Shown here in pieces: positions 1,683 through 7,065 of a stretch of 7,513 nucleotides of DNA (the first letter of the stretch is position 1; each line of letters begins with the position of its first letter). The notes under the pieces were generated by a model. That model saw only the letters and a program-made list of their open reading frames with translations, ran no database searches and was not told the DNA's origin. Made by a program: the position numbers and the translations under genes. This DNA is from Escherichia phage RES-2009a, in sequence record GQ495225.1; one strand, 5' to 3'.

Positions 1683-2951
1683 ATGGTCAAGACAGACAGC
1701 TACGCCAATATATTCCTAGGCGGCAGTGATGGTAGTGAGATTTACGGGAGCTTGCAGAATCAGGCACCGACAATTCTGGCTTCGCTTTATGCGGATAATG
1801 CGCTGGTGCGTCGAATCGTTGACACAGTCCCGGAAACAGCACTAGCGGCAGGGTTCCACATTGATGGCATTGATGATGAACCTGCATTCTGGTCGCGTTG
1901 GGATGATTTGGAAATGACGAAGAATATTAACGACGCTTGGGCATGGGCGAGATTATTCGGTGGTTCAGCCATTGTTGCTATCGTTAAGGACAATAGAGCG
2001 CTAACAAGTCCGGTCAGAGAAGGTGCTGAGCTTGAAACGGTTCGCGTTTACGACCGTACACAAGTAGAAGTACAAACTCGCGAGGAGAATCCACGTAACG
2101 CACGTTTTGGTAAGCCGTTAACCTATCGCATCACCACTAACGAAAGCGATATGTTCTATGACGTGCACTACAGCAGAATTCATATCATCGATGGCGAGCG
2201 AATCCCTAACGTAATGCGTCAACAGAATGACGGATGGGGCCGCAGCGTTCTATCCAGTGACATTCTTGACTCAATCAAGGATTACACCAACTGCGAACGA
2301 CTTGCTACGCAGTTACTGAAGCGCAAGCAGCAGGCGGTGTGGAAAGTCAAAGATCTGGCTGAGTTGTGTGACGATAGTGAGGGATTTGGTGCCGCAAGGT
2401 TGCGCCTAGCACAGGTTGATAACAATAGTGGCGTTGGTCAGGCGATTGGTATTGACGCGGAGTCTGAAGAGTACAGCGTTCTAAACTCTGATATTGGTGG
2501 TATTGATGCGTTCCTGGATAAGAAGTTTGACAGAATCGTTGCTCTGAGCGGTATTCATGAAATCATCCTGAAGAACAAGAACGTTGGTGGCGTGTCATCA
2601 AGCCAGAATACGGCACTGGAGACATTCCATAAGCTAGTTGACCGCAAGCGTAACTCAGAACTGCTGCCTATTCTTGAGTTCTTAATCCAGTTCATAGTTA
2701 ACGTTGACGAATGGTCGGTTGAGTTTAATCCCTTAGCTCAGGAATCAAGCAAGGACAAAGCGGAGATTCTGGAGAAGAACGTAAGCAGCATCGCGACGCT
2801 AATTGCATCTGGCGCTATGGATATTGATGAGGCTAGAGATACATTGCGTACAATCGCTCCAGAGGTTAAGATTAGTGACGGTTCAGTAGAGACAGAGGTG
2901 ACAATTAGTGAAACCAGTAACGACCCGCTGGAAGTATCCGCAGACAATTGA
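1683..2951 (+). CDS. Portal protein (putative)
   Basis: About 422 aa, immediately after the terminase and before a Mu F-like gene, which is the canonical position. The ORF-track start at 1671 is TTG; ATG at 1683 with GGAG at 1673-1676 (6-nt spacer) is the better start. Stop TGA at 2949-2951. Confidence 0.72.
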   Translation: MVKTDSYANIFLGGSDGSEIYGSLQNQAPTILASLYADNALVRRIVDTVPETALAAGFHIDGIDDEPAFWSRWDDLEMTKNINDAWAWARLFGGSAIVAIVKDNRALTSPVREGAELETVRVYDRTQVEVQTREENPRNARFGKPLTYRITTNESDMFYDVHYSRIHIIDGERIPNVMRQQNDGWGRSVLSSDILDSIKDYTNCERLATQLLKRKQQAVWKVKDLAELCDDSEGFGAARLRLAQVDNNSGVGQAIGIDAESEEYSVLNSDIGGIDAFLDKKFDRIVALSGIHEIILKNKNVGGVSSSQNTALETFHKLVDRKRNSELLPILEFLIQFIVNVDEWSVEFNPLAQESSKDKAEILEKNVSSIATLIASGAMDIDEARDTLRTIAPEVKISDGSVETEVTISETSNDPLEVSADN

Positions 2952-3636
2952 GAGCCAAGTTAACCGCAATCTCAGTATTGCGGTAACTGAGTTAATTTCA
3001 GCAATGAAGGAGTCAGCAACAAGGCTTAAAATTGATACTGCAGAGGAGCTGGAGGAGGAGGATGGATACCTTGACGGGATAATTGCGGCGCTGGTGGCTT
3101 CGTTTATATCTACAATCCCAGCCATAGGTGCAGCGATATACAGATACAATAGCTCACAATTTCTTGTGATTGCAATCAAAACTGGCGGTAGGTCAAAACC
3201 TAGCGTTCTAGACCTTGAAGTTAATGGCATCAATGGCGATGAGCCGTGGTATAATGATGACATTAATCAGTGGGTTTACACCACAAGCAAGTCAGCTATT
3301 AAATTGCTGAATAACATTAAAGATGACTTTATTCAAACGGCATCAACAGCACAGAATGGTGACTACGTTAAGTTATCAGGTAGGTACAAAACATACAGGA
3401 AGCGAACGGCAAACATCGCATCTGGGATTGTGTCAAGCCTAAACTCTACACTTATGAGGCGTAGGCTAGAGGATGCTGGCGTTAGCCGTTACATCTGGCA
3501 TGGTATGCTAGACGAAAGGGAGCGGCAATCACACATAGTAAGAGAAGGGCTTAGCTTTAAACTTGGTGGTAACGATATATTTCCAGGTCAAGAATACGGT
3601 TGCCGTTGCTGGTCGGTTCCAGATTGGGAATCATAA
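2908..3636 (+). CDS. Minor head / head morphogenesis protein, phage Mu F-like (SPP1 gp7-like) family
   Basis: C-terminal region WHGMLDERERQSHIVREGL...PGQEYGCRCWSVPDW matches the conserved W..DER.R..H......CRC signature I recall for Mu F-like proteins. GTG start at 2908 has a good SD (AGAGGTG, 8-nt spacer) and overlaps the portal gene by 44 nt. The alternative in-frame ATG at 3004 lacks an SD. Confidence 0.78.
   Translation: MKPVTTRWKYPQTIESQVNRNLSIAVTELISAMKESATRLKIDTAEELEEEDGYLDGIIAALVASFISTIPAIGAAIYRYNSSQFLVIAIKTGGRSKPSVLDLEVNGINGDEPWYNDDINQWVYTTSKSAIKLLNNIKDDFIQTASTAQNGDYVKLSGRYKTYRKRTANIASGIVSSLNSTLMRRRLEDAGVSRYIWHGMLDERERQSHIVREGLSFKLGGNDIFPGQEYGCRCWSVPDWES
3090..3097 (+). other. Chi octamer GCTGGTGG (RecBCD recombination hotspot motif)
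   Basis: Exact 8-mer on the + strand, inside the Mu F-like gene; it is not aligned to codon position 1, unlike the other two copies. Confidence 0.6.
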
Positions 3637-3648
3637 CAGGAGAATTAA

Positions 3649-4740
3649 ATGAGCAAAATCCGCTATGACAGCGCAAAAGTAAAAGCACGATTCGATGAGA
3701 ACGGATTTCTCGTCGACACGCCAGTAGTTGCTCGCGTGGGTGTTCAGACTTACATCACACCAGACGGCAAGGAGCGCCGCGAGTTTCGCCCAGCAAGAGA
3801 GGTATTTAAGGCTGAATCACTCGCAAGCTATCAGGGTAAGCCGGTGACCTTCGGGCATGTCACTGTCAACTCGGATAACGCCAGGGGCGTTGTTGTTGGT
3901 GCGGTTTCCGGATCAGGTGAGCGCAGTGATGCGGCAGTTGTTGTTCCGCTAACCATTTATGACAAAGAGGCTATCGAAGCGGCTAAGGCAGGTCGCGCTG
4001 GTGAGTTGTCGGTTGGCTACACGACCGAGGATGTTAACATAGCAGGTTGGGGTAGCAATGAAACTGGTGAATATAAGCTCGATGGTGAATATGAATCGCA
4101 AGATGACATCCCACCTGAGTGGGTTCGCTTTGATGCGCTACAAACCAACATTGTAGTTAATCATGTTGCACTGGTATATAAAGGTCGCGCAGGGGTAGCA
4201 AAGTTAAATTTTGACGCTCAACAGGAAAACCCGTATACTACTGACGTTGATATCAATAAAGAGGATAAACAGGAAATGACAGTTAAAATTAAACTCGACA
4301 GCGCGCAGGAATTTGAAGTCGCACCGGAAATCGCTTCTCACATCGAAGCACTGAACGCAAAGGCTGACACCGCAATCGCAGAGCGTGATGCACTGAAAGC
4401 TAAAGTACATGCAATGCCTGCTGAAATCGAGGCCGCAGTTGCTAAAGCGAAAGCTGATGCTGATGCCCTAGCTGCCCTGGTTGCTGTTGCTGCTGAAGCT
4501 GGTGTAAAAGCTGATGGCCTGGATGCTAAAGGCATTAAAGTTGCCTACGTTAAAGAAATCTCCGGCCTTGATGTTTCAGAGAAATCCGACGCTTACATCG
4601 ACGCAGCCTTCGACATTGCCAAAGAATCTGATAAAATGGCTGAAGTACGAAAAGCGACTACCGCTTACGACAGATCTGACAGCGCCGATGAGCCTAAGAA
4701 ATTAGACCCTCGCGCTCGTTTAGCTAAAATTAAGAAATAA
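3649..4740 (+). CDS. Scaffolding-type protein: N-terminal globular domain plus C-terminal Ala/Lys/Asp/Glu-rich predicted helical region (possible protease-scaffold fusion)
   Basis: 363 aa, ATG 3649 with AGGAGA 5 nt upstream. Located between the minor head protein and the capsid gene. The C-terminal half (from about nt 4270) is low-complexity and charged, e.g. AEIEAAVAKAKADADALAALVAVAAEAG, which is typical of scaffold coiled-coils. The N-terminal roughly 190 aa looks globular and resembles, from memory, an uncharacterised domain family found at this position in siphovirus head modules. Confidence 0.6.
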   Translation: MSKIRYDSAKVKARFDENGFLVDTPVVARVGVQTYITPDGKERREFRPAREVFKAESLASYQGKPVTFGHVTVNSDNARGVVVGAVSGSGERSDAAVVVPLTIYDKEAIEAAKAGRAGELSVGYTTEDVNIAGWGSNETGEYKLDGEYESQDDIPPEWVRFDALQTNIVVNHVALVYKGRAGVAKLNFDAQQENPYTTDVDINKEDKQEMTVKIKLDSAQEFEVAPEIASHIEALNAKADTAIAERDALKAKVHAMPAEIEAAVAKAKADADALAALVAVAAEAGVKADGLDAKGIKVAYVKEISGLDVSEKSDAYIDAAFDIAKESDKMAEVRKATTAYDRSDSADEPKKLDPRARLAKIKK

Positions 4741-4752
4741 GGAGTTATAAAC

Positions 4753-5226
4753 ATGGCAATTCGTTCCGTAGCACTGGCTGGTATGATTTCTGATACTTCG
4801 CTCCATAACATCGACGGCGCATGTGTGGTTGGCGGCGCAACGGCAATCCCTGTCGGCACTGTTGTTAAGTTTTCAACCGCTCAGCCTGTAGATGGGAATA
4901 AGATTGTGGAAGCAACTGGCCTAGTTACCGGTAATGCTCTTGGTGTAGTTGTTCGATCTCACTACGAGACTGCGGATGGAACTGCTCGCGTAAATGAAGC
5001 GGTTAACGTAATGACTCACGGTCGAATCTGGGTTCGCTCAAGCCTTACTTCTGCACCAACGTTTGGCGCCCCAGTTCTGGTATCTGCCACTGGATTGGTT
5101 GAAGATTCGGGTGCGGTTGACACTGGATGGACTTTTGCGGGTGGTTACATCAAAAACACTGGCACAGACCCGCAAGACCTTAGCGTAGATGGCGCGCTGG
5201 TTGAGGTTCAGGTTAAGCAAAAGTAA
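4753..5226 (+). CDS. Small structural protein, Gly/Val/Ala/Thr-rich (candidate capsid decoration / cement protein)
   Basis: 157 aa, ATG 4753 with AAGGAG 8 nt upstream overlapping the previous stop. Composition suggests a beta-rich protein. It lies immediately upstream of the major capsid gene and is followed by a strong terminator. Function is inferred from position and composition only. Confidence 0.55.
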   Translation: MAIRSVALAGMISDTSLHNIDGACVVGGATAIPVGTVVKFSTAQPVDGNKIVEATGLVTGNALGVVVRSHYETADGTARVNEAVNVMTHGRIWVRSSLTSAPTFGAPVLVSATGLVEDSGAVDTGWTFAGGYIKNTGTDPQDLSVDGALVEVQVKQK

Positions 5227-5244
5227 ATCCTAAAGCTAAATTAA

Positions 5245-5267
5245 AGCCTCCTTCGGGAGGTTTTTTT
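5245..5267 (+). terminator. Rho-independent terminator (UUCG tetraloop)
   Basis: CCTCC (5247-5251), loop TTCG (5252-5255), GGAGG (5256-5260), extendable by flanking A-T pairs, then T7 run 5261-5267. Starts 19 nt after the stop of the 157-aa gene. Confidence 0.75.
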
Positions 5268-5273
5268 ATACCA

Positions 5274-5301
5274 TTGCGTGGGCTAAAAACTCGTGTATAA
5301 T
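5274..5301 (+). promoter_or_regulatory. Sigma70-like promoter candidate upstream of the major capsid gene
   Basis: -35 TTGCGT (5274-5279), 16-bp spacer, consensus -10 TATAAT (5296-5301). Predicted start about 5308, giving a roughly 32-nt leader with AAGGA at 5325-5329 before ATG 5340. Confidence 0.5.
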
Positions 5302-5339
5302 GAATCCGTAGACACCTAACTGAAAAGGAACAATAAAGA

Positions 5340-6284
5340 ATGGCCATTAAATTTGATGCAGAACAAGCAAAAATCACTGCTCACCTAGAGCAAATGGGCG
5401 TAGATAAGGCTGATGCCGCTGGTATCTGGACCGTTAGCCAGCTTACCGCTTCTCTGAAGCGTGCTTACGAAAAAGAATATTCAGACAACTCCGTTGTTAA
5501 TATCTTCCCTGTAACCAATGAAATCCCTGGTCACGCGAAGTATTTCGAATACCCAGAGTTTGATGGTGTTGGAATTGCTCAGATTATCGCTGATTACTCT
5601 GACGACCTGCCGCTGGTTGATGCCTTCATGACTGAGAAGCAAGGTAAAGTGTTCCGTTTCGGTAACGCATTCCTGATCTCCACTGATGAAATTAAAGCAG
5701 GCGCAGCTACTGGTCAGTCACTGTCGACTCGCAAACAGGCCCTGGCTTTCGAAGCACACGACAACCTGCTGGATAAACTGGTTTGGTCCGGTTCCTCTCC
5801 GCACGGTATCGTAAGCGTATTCGATCAGCCGAACATCAACAACGTTGTTGCCACTCCAAACTGGAGCGTCCCGCAGAACGCGATTGATGACGTCACTGCG
5901 ATGATTGATGCGGTTGAGAGCTCAACTCAGGGCCTACATCATGTAACTGACATTCTGCTTCCGGCTTCCGCTCGTCGAGTAATGCAGGGACTGGTTCCGC
6001 AGACAAACCTGAGTTACGGCGAATTGTTCACTCGTAACAACCCGGGTCTGACTATTCGCTTTATGCAGATCCTGGATAACTACGATGGCGCTGGTGGTAA
6101 AGCCGCTCTGGCGTTTGAGAAGAGTCCACTCAATATGTCTATCGAGATTCCGGAAGCTACTAACGTTCTTCCGGCTCAACCTCGAGATCTGCATTTCCGC
6201 TACCCTGTAACATCAAAGGCTACGGGATTGATTGTATATCGCCCTCTTACGATGGCTGCAATCAAAGGCATCACCTTCGCGTGA
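5340..6284 (+). CDS. Major capsid protein (putative)
   Basis: 314 aa, size appropriate for a capsid protein, and follows the scaffold and small structural genes. It has its own promoter candidate and SD and is followed by a strong terminator, a layout consistent with a highly expressed structural gene. Sequence identity was not verified by search. Confidence 0.72.
   Translation: MAIKFDAEQAKITAHLEQMGVDKADAAGIWTVSQLTASLKRAYEKEYSDNSVVNIFPVTNEIPGHAKYFEYPEFDGVGIAQIIADYSDDLPLVDAFMTEKQGKVFRFGNAFLISTDEIKAGAATGQSLSTRKQALAFEAHDNLLDKLVWSGSSPHGIVSVFDQPNINNVVATPNWSVPQNAIDDVTAMIDAVESSTQGLHHVTDILLPASARRVMQGLVPQTNLSYGELFTRNNPGLTIRFMQILDNYDGAGGKAALAFEKSPLNMSIEIPEATNVLPAQPRDLHFRYPVTSKATGLIVYRPLTMAAIKGITFA
6090..6097 (+). 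other. Chi octamer GCTGGTGG
   Basis: Exact 8-mer on the + strand inside the capsid gene, encoding Ala-Gly-Gly in frame. Confidence 0.6.
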
Positions 6285-6290
6285 TAAATC

Positions 6291-6312
6291 GCCCTCTTCG
6301 GAGGGCTTTTTT
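6291..6312 (+). terminator. Rho-independent terminator (UUCG tetraloop)
   Basis: GCCCTC (6291-6296), loop TTCG (6297-6300), GAGGGC (6301-6306), then T6 run 6307-6312. Starts 7 nt after the capsid gene stop (TGA 6282-6284, followed by TAA). Confidence 0.8.
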
Positions 6313-6317
6313 ACGTC

Positions 6318-6346
6318 TGTACCAAATGGATTTGTTGGGTTATAAT
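6318..6346 (+). promoter_or_regulatory. Possible weak sigma70 promoter upstream of the 81-aa gene
   Basis: Consensus -10 TATAAT at 6341-6346, but only a poor -35 candidate (TGTACC at 6318-6323 with 17-bp spacer). No TG extended -10. Confidence 0.3.
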
Positions 6347-6376
6347 CACTCAATCAGATAAACAAAGGAGATAAAA

Positions 6377-6622
6377 ATGATTCGTTTAGAACACACTGGC
6401 GCTTGCCTTATCGTTTACAAAGGTGATAAATATTTGCCTGGTGACACTTTCGAGGTTGATGTAATTTGCGACGGGCTCAAGCGTTTAATCGCAGAGGGTA
6501 AACTCACGATTGAGGGTGACACCAAAGCAACCAAACAGATCGCGCAGGAAATTGTTAGCAAGAAAAAGCGCAAAGAACCGAAAACCATCTCCGAAGCTGA
6601 GATTGGCAACGAGTACAAATAA
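6377..6622 (+). CDS. Hypothetical small protein, 81 aa, Lys-rich C-terminus
   Basis: ATG 6377 with AAGGAG (6365-6370) and a 6-nt spacer. No recognisable motif. Bracketed by hairpin terminators on both sides with a TATAAT box upstream. Confidence 0.65.
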   Translation: MIRLEHTGACLIVYKGDKYLPGDTFEVDVICDGLKRLIAEGKLTIEGDTKATKQIAQEIVSKKKRKEPKTISEAEIGNEYK

Positions 6623-6628
6623 CAAACA

Positions 6629-6650
6629 GGGCGCTTCGGCGTCCTTTATT
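6629..6650 (+). terminator. Terminator-like hairpin (UUCG tetraloop, weak U-tract)
   Basis: GGGCGC (6629-6634), loop TTCG (6635-6638), GCGTCC (6639-6644): 6-bp stem with one G-U pair, followed by TTTATT. The weaker T-run suggests partial termination or an RNA-stabilising hairpin. Confidence 0.45.
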
Positions 6651-6663
6651 GTATGGAGCTAAT

Positions 6664-7065
6664 ATGAATGATGCAATTTTGGCGTTTATGCGCTCGCTTG
6701 TTCCGGCGCTCAAAGCGGTGGATGACGAATCAATTAATGTATGGATTGATTTGGCACGTCTATACGTATGCGAAAGCAAATTTGGTGCAGACAAAGACAA
6801 GGCTGTCGGGCTTTATGCGCTACACCTGATGCTTGCTGATGGCGCATTTAAGGGTGAGAATGAAGGCCTGGAAACATACAGCCGTAGAATGGCAAGTTAT
6901 GCACTGAGCGGTGAATTCTCTATAACCTATGATAACCAATCAGCAATCCAGGGTGATTTATCATCTTCCTCCTGGGGTCGCATGTACAAGGCGCTTCTCC
7001 GCAAGAAAGGTGGCGGCTTTGGATTGATTACTTCCGCTGGTGGCGGTGGGTGCGGTTGCCGATGA
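6664..7065 (+). CDS. Putative head-tail adaptor / head completion protein
   Basis: 133 aa. The ORF-track start at 6649 is TTG; ATG at 6664 with TGGAG (6654-6658) and a 5-nt spacer is preferred. Size and position (first neck-type gene after the capsid gene) fit a connector, but the sequence is not confidently recognised. Unusual Gly-rich C-terminus GGGFGLITSAGGGGCGCR. Confidence 0.5.
   Translation: MNDAILAFMRSLVPALKAVDDESINVWIDLARLYVCESKFGADKDKAVGLYALHLMLADGAFKGENEGLETYSRRMASYALSGEFSITYDNQSAIQGDLSSSSWGRMYKALLRKKGGGFGLITSAGGGGCGCR
7036..7043 (+). other. Chi octamer GCTGGTGG
   Basis: Exact 8-mer on the + strand near the 3' end of the 133-aa gene, encoding Ala-Gly-Gly in frame. Confidence 0.6.

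Follow-up and report, generated by a model that had tools for sequence, protein, structure and literature searches.

Genes and Chi octamers of the window

The window, the whole stretch of 7,513 nucleotides from Escherichia phage RES-2009a (GQ495225.1) that was analyzed here, contains three exact copies of Chi, the octamer 5'-GCTGGTGG-3', which acts on RecBCD when the enzyme enters DNA from a duplex end 3' of the octamer (2025, PMC12315714). The effects of Chi on the enzyme comprise nicking, attenuation of its nuclease and the loading of RecA. A pattern search located the copies at 3090-3097, 6090-6097 and 7036-7043, all on the + strand, and found no copy of CCACCAGC, the corresponding word for Chi on the - strand, in the whole window. 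These counts agreed with an earlier reading of the letters alone, referred to here as the original prediction, which had attributed the sites to selection that protects the injected or packaged linear genome. The polarity that it assigned to them, with RecBCD entering from the right and travelling right to left across the window, was also in accord with the literature (PMC12315714).

About 60 phage records matched most of the window (80-95% of its length) at 84-88% identity, among them BEK2, Rtp and OzMSK, at about 87%, as well as vB_EcoS-12469II, ACG-M12 and JulesPiccard. None of the 5,426 complete E. coli genomes had a match to the window. Nearly all of the close relatives at 84-88% identity were isolated on E. 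coli, which is very likely the host of this phage as well; the enteric host guessed in the original prediction was thus borne out by the relatives. Nine complete genomes of relatives were used for comparison: BEK2, Rtp, vB_EcoS-12469II, T1, OzMSK, ACG-M12, FP, JulesPiccard and AHP42.

All of the open reading frames (ORFs) in the window are on the + strand, and about 95% of the window is coding on that strand. Gene identities were based on Pfam matches and on the annotation of relatives. The order begins with the large terminase (60-1640) and the portal (1671-2951), followed by a MuF-like head morphogenesis gene (2908..3636), whose Pfam match to Phage_Mu_F (E=2e-6, 29.0 bits) fell just under the curated cutoff of 29.6 and whose homologs in Rtp and OzMSK are annotated as head morphogenesis or T1 gp51-like proteins. 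Next come a DUF2213 prohead protease or scaffold (3649-4740), a cement or decoration protein (4753-5226), the major capsid protein (5340..6284; Pfam Major_capside, E=2.9e-34), which is homologous to Rtp27 and T1 gp47, a DUF7444 protein (6377-6622) and a DUF4054 head-tail connector (6649..7065; Pfam DUF4054, E=1.5e-21), the OzMSK homolog of which is annotated as a head-to-tail connector. The collinear series of terminase, portal, MuF, protease, decoration, major capsid and connector genes identifies the window, as judged from gene content, gene order and nucleotide identity, as the terminase-to-connector, late structural module of an Rtp-like coliphage (Drexlerviridae, Braunvirinae; relatives of T1).

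A further connector gene, also on the + strand, starts at ATG 7062 and overlaps the stop codon of the DUF4054 gene as ATGA, an arrangement that suggests translational coupling of the two genes. The longest ORF for this second connector gene opens at GTG 7050, but both the OzMSK annotation and the ATGA overlap favor ATG 7062.

The three octamers lie in three different genes and have different histories. As the original prediction had stated, the sites at 6090 and 7036 are in frame, encoding Ala-Gly-Gly as GCT-GGT-GG, and the site at 3090 is not aligned to codon position 1. The latter (3090..3097) is read as G-CTG-GTG-G, encoding Ala-Leu-Val-Ala in the MuF-like gene, and a codon-pair model described below gave it a Chi probability of about 0.01. 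At the homologous position OzMSK and Rtp also have Chi, and BEK2 and vB_EcoS-12469II have the synonymous GCATTGGTGG, so that, as the alignment reads, it flickers synonymously between Chi and non-Chi among relatives. The site in the major capsid gene (6090..6097), with a Chi probability of 0.22 in the same model, is Chi in the window alone. In six of the eight aligned relatives, GCA or GCG precedes GGTGG, and in the other two (vB_EcoS-12469II and AHP42) there is no Gly codon at the site. Its restriction to the window, together with the GCA or GCG of the relatives, points to a single, recent, lineage-specific synonymous change to GCT.

The third site (7036..7043), near the C-terminus of the DUF4054 connector, is Chi in five of the seven aligned relatives (FP, ACG-M12, OzMSK, BEK2 and vB_EcoS), and four of these five share an identical block of 26 nucleotides that includes it. 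In Rtp and JulesPiccard, Chi was lost through amino acid changes. The octamer lies 19-26 nucleotides upstream of ATG 7062 and adjoins the G-rich GGTGGGTG, which is probably the ribosome-binding site of the next connector gene. The overlapping constraints of coding and translation initiation would suffice to account for the conservation of this site.

Expected numbers and codon context

Dinucleotide shuffles of the window yielded 0.17 Chi, both strands combined, and none of 200 shuffles reached three. This null is the wrong one because nearly the whole of the window is coding on one strand. Markov models predicted 0.13 + strand Chi at order 1 and 0.35, 0.58, 0.84 and 1.11 at orders 2 to 5, respectively. 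When synonymous codons were shuffled within each gene, with the proteins fixed, 0.56 + strand Chi were expected and P(>=3) was 0.008-0.010. The same shuffle predicted 0.33 Chi on the - strand (range, 0.06-0.33), so few that their absence is uninformative. The + strand has 11 variants of Chi with a single mismatch, compared with 2 for the - strand.

The proteins encoded by the window permit Chi on the + strand at nine places, three of them Ala-Gly-Gly and six X-Leu-Val-X. The one Ala-Gly-Gly that is permissive and yet not Chi (5137..5144, + strand) is spelt GCGGGTGG. A joint codon-pair (dicodon) model, trained on the nine relatives alone, put the probability of Chi at 0.22 for each Ala-Gly-Gly and the expectation for the window at 0.74, with P(>=3)=0.020 and P(>=2)=0.16. 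A dicodon chain that drew its first codon from single-codon frequencies returned 0.46 and was rejected, as it misses the pair bias. Thus, the expectation of 0.1 per strand and the strong enrichment claimed in the original prediction gave way to a codon-aware expectation of 0.56-0.74 and a nominal P of 0.01-0.02. Since the window had been flagged for having three sites, P values of this size are weak evidence. The window has 57 distinct octamers that are present at least three times on the + strand, and 4.1% of windows of the same size in the nine relatives contain at least three co-oriented Chi, a proportion that rises to as much as 14% in OzMSK. The density of Chi in the window, 0.4 per kb, is a local peak.

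The excess was found in shorter words contained within Chi. In synonymous shuffles of the window, the hexamer GCTGGT (12 copies, 5.13 expected, P 0.0013) and the heptamer GCTGGTG (6 copies, 1.66 expected, P 0.002) were both more abundant than predicted, as was the octamer itself (3 copies, 0.56 expected, P 0.008). The five copies of CGCTGGTG, with 0.50 expected, were reached in none of 4000 shuffles. The commonest + strand octamers of the window are GCGCTGGT and CGCTGGTG, with five copies each, and both overlap Chi at an offset of one to two bases. Among the six heptamers, the following base is G three times, where about two would be expected, and A, C and T once each. The three that are not Chi, all on the + strand, are followed by C in the portal gene (1802..1808, read as G-CTG-GTG) and, in the protease/DUF2213 gene, by A (3997..4003, GCT-GGT-GAG, Ala-Gly-Glu) and T (4498..4504, GCT-GGT-GTA, Ala-Gly-Val). 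Given the heptamer, no Chi-specific excess is left and the eighth base is not enriched.

The same preference was apparent throughout the relatives. All nine over-use GCT-GGT for Ala-Gly relative to independent codon frequencies, with, for example, 24 observed and 12.0 expected in Rtp, 25 and 11.2 in ACG-M12, and 22 and 10.1 in JulesPiccard; the corresponding values for the window are 7 and 3.0. A control was provided by Ala-Gly followed by Ala, Val, Asp or Glu, which shares the GCTGGTG heptamer but is unable to form Chi. Among unique contexts in the relatives, GCT-GGT was used in 12 of 46 Ala-Gly-Gly (26%) and in 32 of 128 control contexts (25%; Fisher p=1.0). The original prediction had argued that codon choice could not explain all three sites, a conclusion that is not supported by the location of the excess in the sub-words and the identical behavior of Ala-Gly-Gly and the non-Chi control.

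Pooled over the nine genomes, GCTGGT occurred at 1.65 times expectation in sense phase 0 and 1.79 times in phase 2, but at 0.97 times in phase 1 and 0.99 times in antisense. The corresponding ratios for GCTGGTG were 1.99, 2.71, 0.80 and 1.18. In + genes, 195 sense copies of GCTGGT were observed (121.6 expected) vs 80 antisense copies (87.9 expected), and in - genes there were 54 sense copies where 38.0 were expected. A signal at the level of the DNA strand was therefore rejected, given that the phase 1 and antisense ratios are close to 1 and that - genes show an excess in their own sense. Selection directed at RecBCD should favor a single DNA strand, irrespective of which way the genes are transcribed. 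The 27 sense-strand Chi in the relatives, set against 88 heptamers, are about the proportion predicted by the shuffles.

GCTGGT ranked 21st of the 4,096 hexamers, 193 of which were at z>=4. The hexamers enriched beside it included CTGGTG, CTGGCG, CCTGGT, TGCTGG and CTGGTT, while GCCGGT and GCGGGT were avoided. The preference for GCT-GGT and for words containing CTGG is thus a general codon-context bias of the family, with no specificity for Chi. The idea that it imitates the codon pairs of the host was rejected, since a 50-kb sample of E. coli K-12 under-uses GCT-GGT (6 observed, 11.4 expected). Restriction-site avoidance and effects on translation are guesses at its cause.

Chi and gene organization in the relatives

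The relatives have 0-6 + strand Chi per approximately 46 kb (0-0.13 per kb), and the synonymous-shuffle expectation ranged from 0.7 to 1.8. The numbers on the + and - strands were 2 and 0 in BEK2, 3 and 0 in Rtp, 4 and 0 in vB_EcoS-12469II, 0 and 0 in T1, 6 and 2 in OzMSK, 5 and 0 in ACG-M12, 3 and 1 in FP, 3 and 0 in JulesPiccard, and 1 and 0 in AHP42. The absence of Chi from T1, where 1.6-2.3 would be expected, was not significant and was not accepted as avoidance. The original prediction had proposed a whole-genome count against codon-preserving shuffles; carried out on the nine relatives, this comparison revealed no Chi-specific excess beyond that of the heptamer, and no over-representation of Chi beyond composition and codon expectation was found in these genomes. 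The published values for T1-like phages are a median observed/expected ratio (O/E) of 0.55 and a Z of -0.11, obtained from five genomes listed with Erf recombinase and concatemer packaging (Bobay et al. 2013, Table S5).

Of the 30 Chi copies in the relatives, 27 are in the sense orientation, two are antisense and one is intergenic. Each genome offers 15-27 Chi-permissive protein contexts in + genes and 1-5 in - genes, and the one-sidedness of Chi in the relatives arises because the permissive contexts are concentrated in + genes. In these genomes the orientation bias was tied to gene orientation and not to a DNA end or to packaging. The two antisense copies (OzMSK 24122 and ACG-M12 24471) are homologous and on the + DNA strand. 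They lie within a - strand gene for a receptor-binding protein, downstream of a J-like tail fiber gene.

Packaging in T1-like phages is of the pac-initiated headful type; each concatemer yields three to four headfuls, and the genome ends are free and terminally redundant. The T1 record, which has the same orientation as the window, shows a terminal repeat of 2.8 kb at the left, before the early genes and the terminase. Four relatives (Rtp, ACG-M12, FP and OzMSK) have records that begin at the left end, and in these a distance of 21-26 kb separates the right end from the nearest + strand Chi. In the relatives all + strand Chi but one (FP 812) are within the region of head, tail and receptor-binding genes. 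No clustering at an exposed end, or between the origin and the packaging site, was found in the relatives. With Chi at a distance of 21-26 kb, RecBCD arriving from the right would meet none until it had traversed the early, lysis, replication and recombination genes.

A RecE-like exonuclease VIII and an Erf-like annealase are annotated in BEK2, Rtp, T1, OzMSK, ACG-M12, JulesPiccard and AHP42, most of which also have SSB. A recombination module is therefore present in the relatives by annotation and, by synteny, RecE, Erf and SSB genes would be expected in the phage from which the window derives, outside the window itself.

Several other features of the region vary among the relatives. A separate MuF-like gene is present in the window, BEK2, Rtp, OzMSK, AHP42 and T1; in vB_EcoS-12469II, BLAST aligned the DNA that spans the 3090 site. 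In ACG-M12, FP and JulesPiccard the gene is apparently absent as a separate entity and the protease directly follows the portal. This pattern, as it appears from the gene maps, is module-level mosaicism within the Braunvirinae. In the window the terminase is followed directly by the portal, and the interval between them (1641-1670) contains only a terminator-like hairpin (1647-1665) with a T-run; at the same junction Rtp, BEK2, ACG-M12 and JulesPiccard have an extra ORF of approximately 310-380 nucleotides. An HNH or homing-endonuclease-like ORF is located just 5' of the terminase in Rtp, BEK2, FP and AHP42. Strong terminator-like hairpins with T-runs were also seen after the major capsid gene (6291-6306) and after the DUF7444 gene (6628-6645), and resemble the many annotated intrinsic terminators in the late regions of T1 and AHP42. 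The GC skew is positive over the window except in the major capsid gene (5500-6250), where it falls to between -0.04 and -0.06 at a GC content of about 0.51.

Half of the window was also matched, at 82% identity, by PP134917.1, a record labelled Pseudomonas phage PsgS01F with Pseudomonas syringae pv. garcae as its host, and single Campylobacter-phage and Enterococcus-phage records were among the matches. These unusual host labels on Rtp-like coliphage DNA may have resulted from contamination or mislabelling.

Interpretation and comparison with known systems

The three Chi octamers are most probably incidental sense-strand words that result from the codon context of the phage family, and not a selected shield against RecBCD. 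The one-strandedness of Chi would be a consequence of the layout, because every gene in the window lies on the + strand and co-oriented Chi would follow gene orientation. The few Ala-Gly-Gly and Leu-Val contexts in the structural proteins set the nine permissive places. The family uses GCT-GGT for Ala-Gly at about double the rate predicted from single codons, giving each Ala-Gly-Gly a roughly 1-in-4 likelihood of being Chi, and more generally it over-uses coding-strand words that contain CTGG and avoids GCC-GG and GCG-GG. Chance would decide which of these places are realized, here two of the three Ala-Gly-Gly and one Leu-Val. On this account, the 6090 site came from one synonymous change, the 7036 site was inherited in a block conserved by the start of the next gene, and the 3090 site flickers. 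Chi is defined by its sequence, so RecBCD moving right to left would presumably still recognize the octamers, but nothing points to their upkeep for a purpose connected with RecBCD.

Some observations weigh against this explanation. The count in the window is nominally unusual under every codon-aware null (P 0.008-0.02), and several Braunvirinae are above the synonymous expectation, with 4 sites vs 1.19 in vB_EcoS, 6 vs 1.79 in OzMSK and 5 vs 1.75 in ACG-M12. The sites that make up this excess are largely common by descent, and its size, about twofold, equals that of the GCTGGTG heptamer. In addition, the preference for GCT-GGT and CTGG is not simple host mimicry, as the K-12 sample shows. The genome-wide statements rest on nine relatives and on genes in those relatives that were called by the author's greedy ORF caller rather than taken from curated annotation. 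The residual uncertainty resides in the reliance on relatives for genome-wide counts, in the modest twofold Chi and heptamer excess of the Braunvirinae and in the origin of the codon-context bias.

The explanation advanced in the original prediction, that selection keeps co-oriented Chi to attenuate RecBCD entering the linear genome at its right-hand end, accommodates the exact, co-oriented octamers, a polarity that is right for entry at that end, the free, terminally redundant ends expected of T1-like pac headful packaging, a count above the codon-aware nulls (nominal P 0.01-0.02) and the two- to threefold excess over expectation in some Braunvirinae genomes. It is nevertheless very improbable, because the bias follows the gene strand rather than the DNA strand, there is no Chi-specific signal past the heptamer, and the sites are few and poorly placed. 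The + strand sites number only 0-6 per relative, with T1 at zero, and the published O/E is 0.55. By the time RecBCD entering at the right end reached Chi, 21-26 kb in, it would have destroyed the genes for lysis, replication and recombination; the left end has no guard of - strand Chi, and the 6090 Chi is found in no relative. Moreover, none of more than 80 environmental coliphages screened was blocked by RecBCD. If protection were nonetheless the correct explanation, a virulent phage with its own recombinase would be using host Chi signalling, contrary to the published pattern in lambdoid phages, which are Chi-rich when they have no Rec module and Chi-poor, tending to be Chi-free, when they have a Rec module and a RecBCD inhibitor. 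A variant in which Chi harnesses host RecBCD-RecA for the formation or protection of concatemers used in headful packaging or for circularization through terminal redundancy (Bobay 2013, Zheng 2025) draws on the tendency of concatemer-packaging phages to over-represent Chi, strongly so in P1-like and T5-like phages and Rec-less lambdoids, and on the use of concatemers for packaging by the Drexlerviridae. It is hardly credible here, given that the family has its own RecE-like exonuclease, Erf annealase and SSB, that the T1-like O/E of 0.55 comes from Bobay 2013 itself, and that genuine cases have about 23 Chi in 43 kb at the exposed end or between ori and cos, as opposed to 0-6 in 46 kb among head and tail genes; the codon-context tests apply to it equally.

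At the other extreme, the three sites could be pure sampling noise with no compositional cause, noticed because many windows were inspected. The 57 octamers present at least three times, the 4.1% of windows in the relatives with at least three co-oriented Chi and the post hoc selection of the window are in keeping with this idea, but the excess of GCTGGT and GCTGGTG is reproducible in nine genomes and specific to the sense strand, which makes noise alone improbable. A reproducible sub-word excess implies that compositional bias raises the baseline, and chance then explains only which of the permissive sites are realized. There is also a very slight likelihood that the Braunvirinae maintain a sparse set of + strand Chi in their late genes despite having RecE and Erf, candidates being the 7036 site (six of eight genomes) and a pair in the tape-measure gene. 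If so, RecBCD degrading a concatemer from its unpackaged end, or entering a rolling-circle tail that had broken, would become a recombinase loader in time to spare the head genes, and the GCTGGTG excess of the family would be in part the footprint of selection for Chi or Chi-like words.

Incidental origin from codon context, the preferred explanation, carries a caution for similar analyses. In a phage module transcribed in one direction, a G-rich, codon-friendly octamer such as Chi can seem over-represented and co-oriented, even where selection plays no part, if the null is a uniform or dinucleotide one. The proper controls are nulls that preserve the proteins and take account of codon pairs, conditioning on sub-words, and the comparison of synonymous contexts that form Chi with those that do not.

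Among phages known to be rich in Chi, the Rec-less lambdoids (LLS), P1-like and T5-like phages resemble this family in being coliphages that package from concatemers, and their Chi are on the top strand, as in the window, and active for RecBCD arriving from the right. The likeness does not extend to number or placement. LLS has no Rec module and grows better with RecBCD. Its 42.9 kb contain 23 Chi, of which 20 have the active orientation and form a cluster at the exposed right end, while in Rec-less lambdoids Chi is concentrated between ori and cos. The P1-like phages have a Chi O/E of 10.8, and in P1 itself Chi is equally dense outside and inside ORFs and less tied to the coding strand (Subramaniam & Smith). 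The Chi of the Rtp/T1 family, on the other hand, are few, all but one intragenic, nearly all in the sense orientation and far from the ends.

Lambda and the Rec+ Inh+ lambdoids, which encode Gam or Abc2, are like this family in having their own exonuclease and annealase, and T1 has no Chi. Lambda-type phages show significant avoidance of Chi, with a median O/E of 0, whereas in the Rtp-like clade Chi is not avoided, nor is there an enrichment specific to it. RecBCD inhibitors of the Gam, Abc2 or gp5.9 type are small, fast-evolving proteins; none was identified here, where no search aimed at them was made. The T1-like phages of Bobay et al. 2013 belong to the same family and likewise have no over-representation of Chi. 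That study differed in using five genomes and a trinucleotide model, and the counts obtained here for the Braunvirinae, 2-6 per genome, are somewhat higher, the excess being traced to sub-word codon context.

Another parallel is with Chi on the E. coli chromosome, where the same octamer is found nearly always in ORFs and on the coding strand, its strand bias following gene orientation, as in the window. The two differ in density and frame: E. coli has about 0.2 Chi per kb, 68% of them in the CTG-GTG frame, while the phage family has 0-0.13 per kb, mostly read as GCT-GGT-GG. In E. coli, codon usage and ORF orientation have been argued to account for the frequency and orientation of Chi (Subramaniam & Smith).

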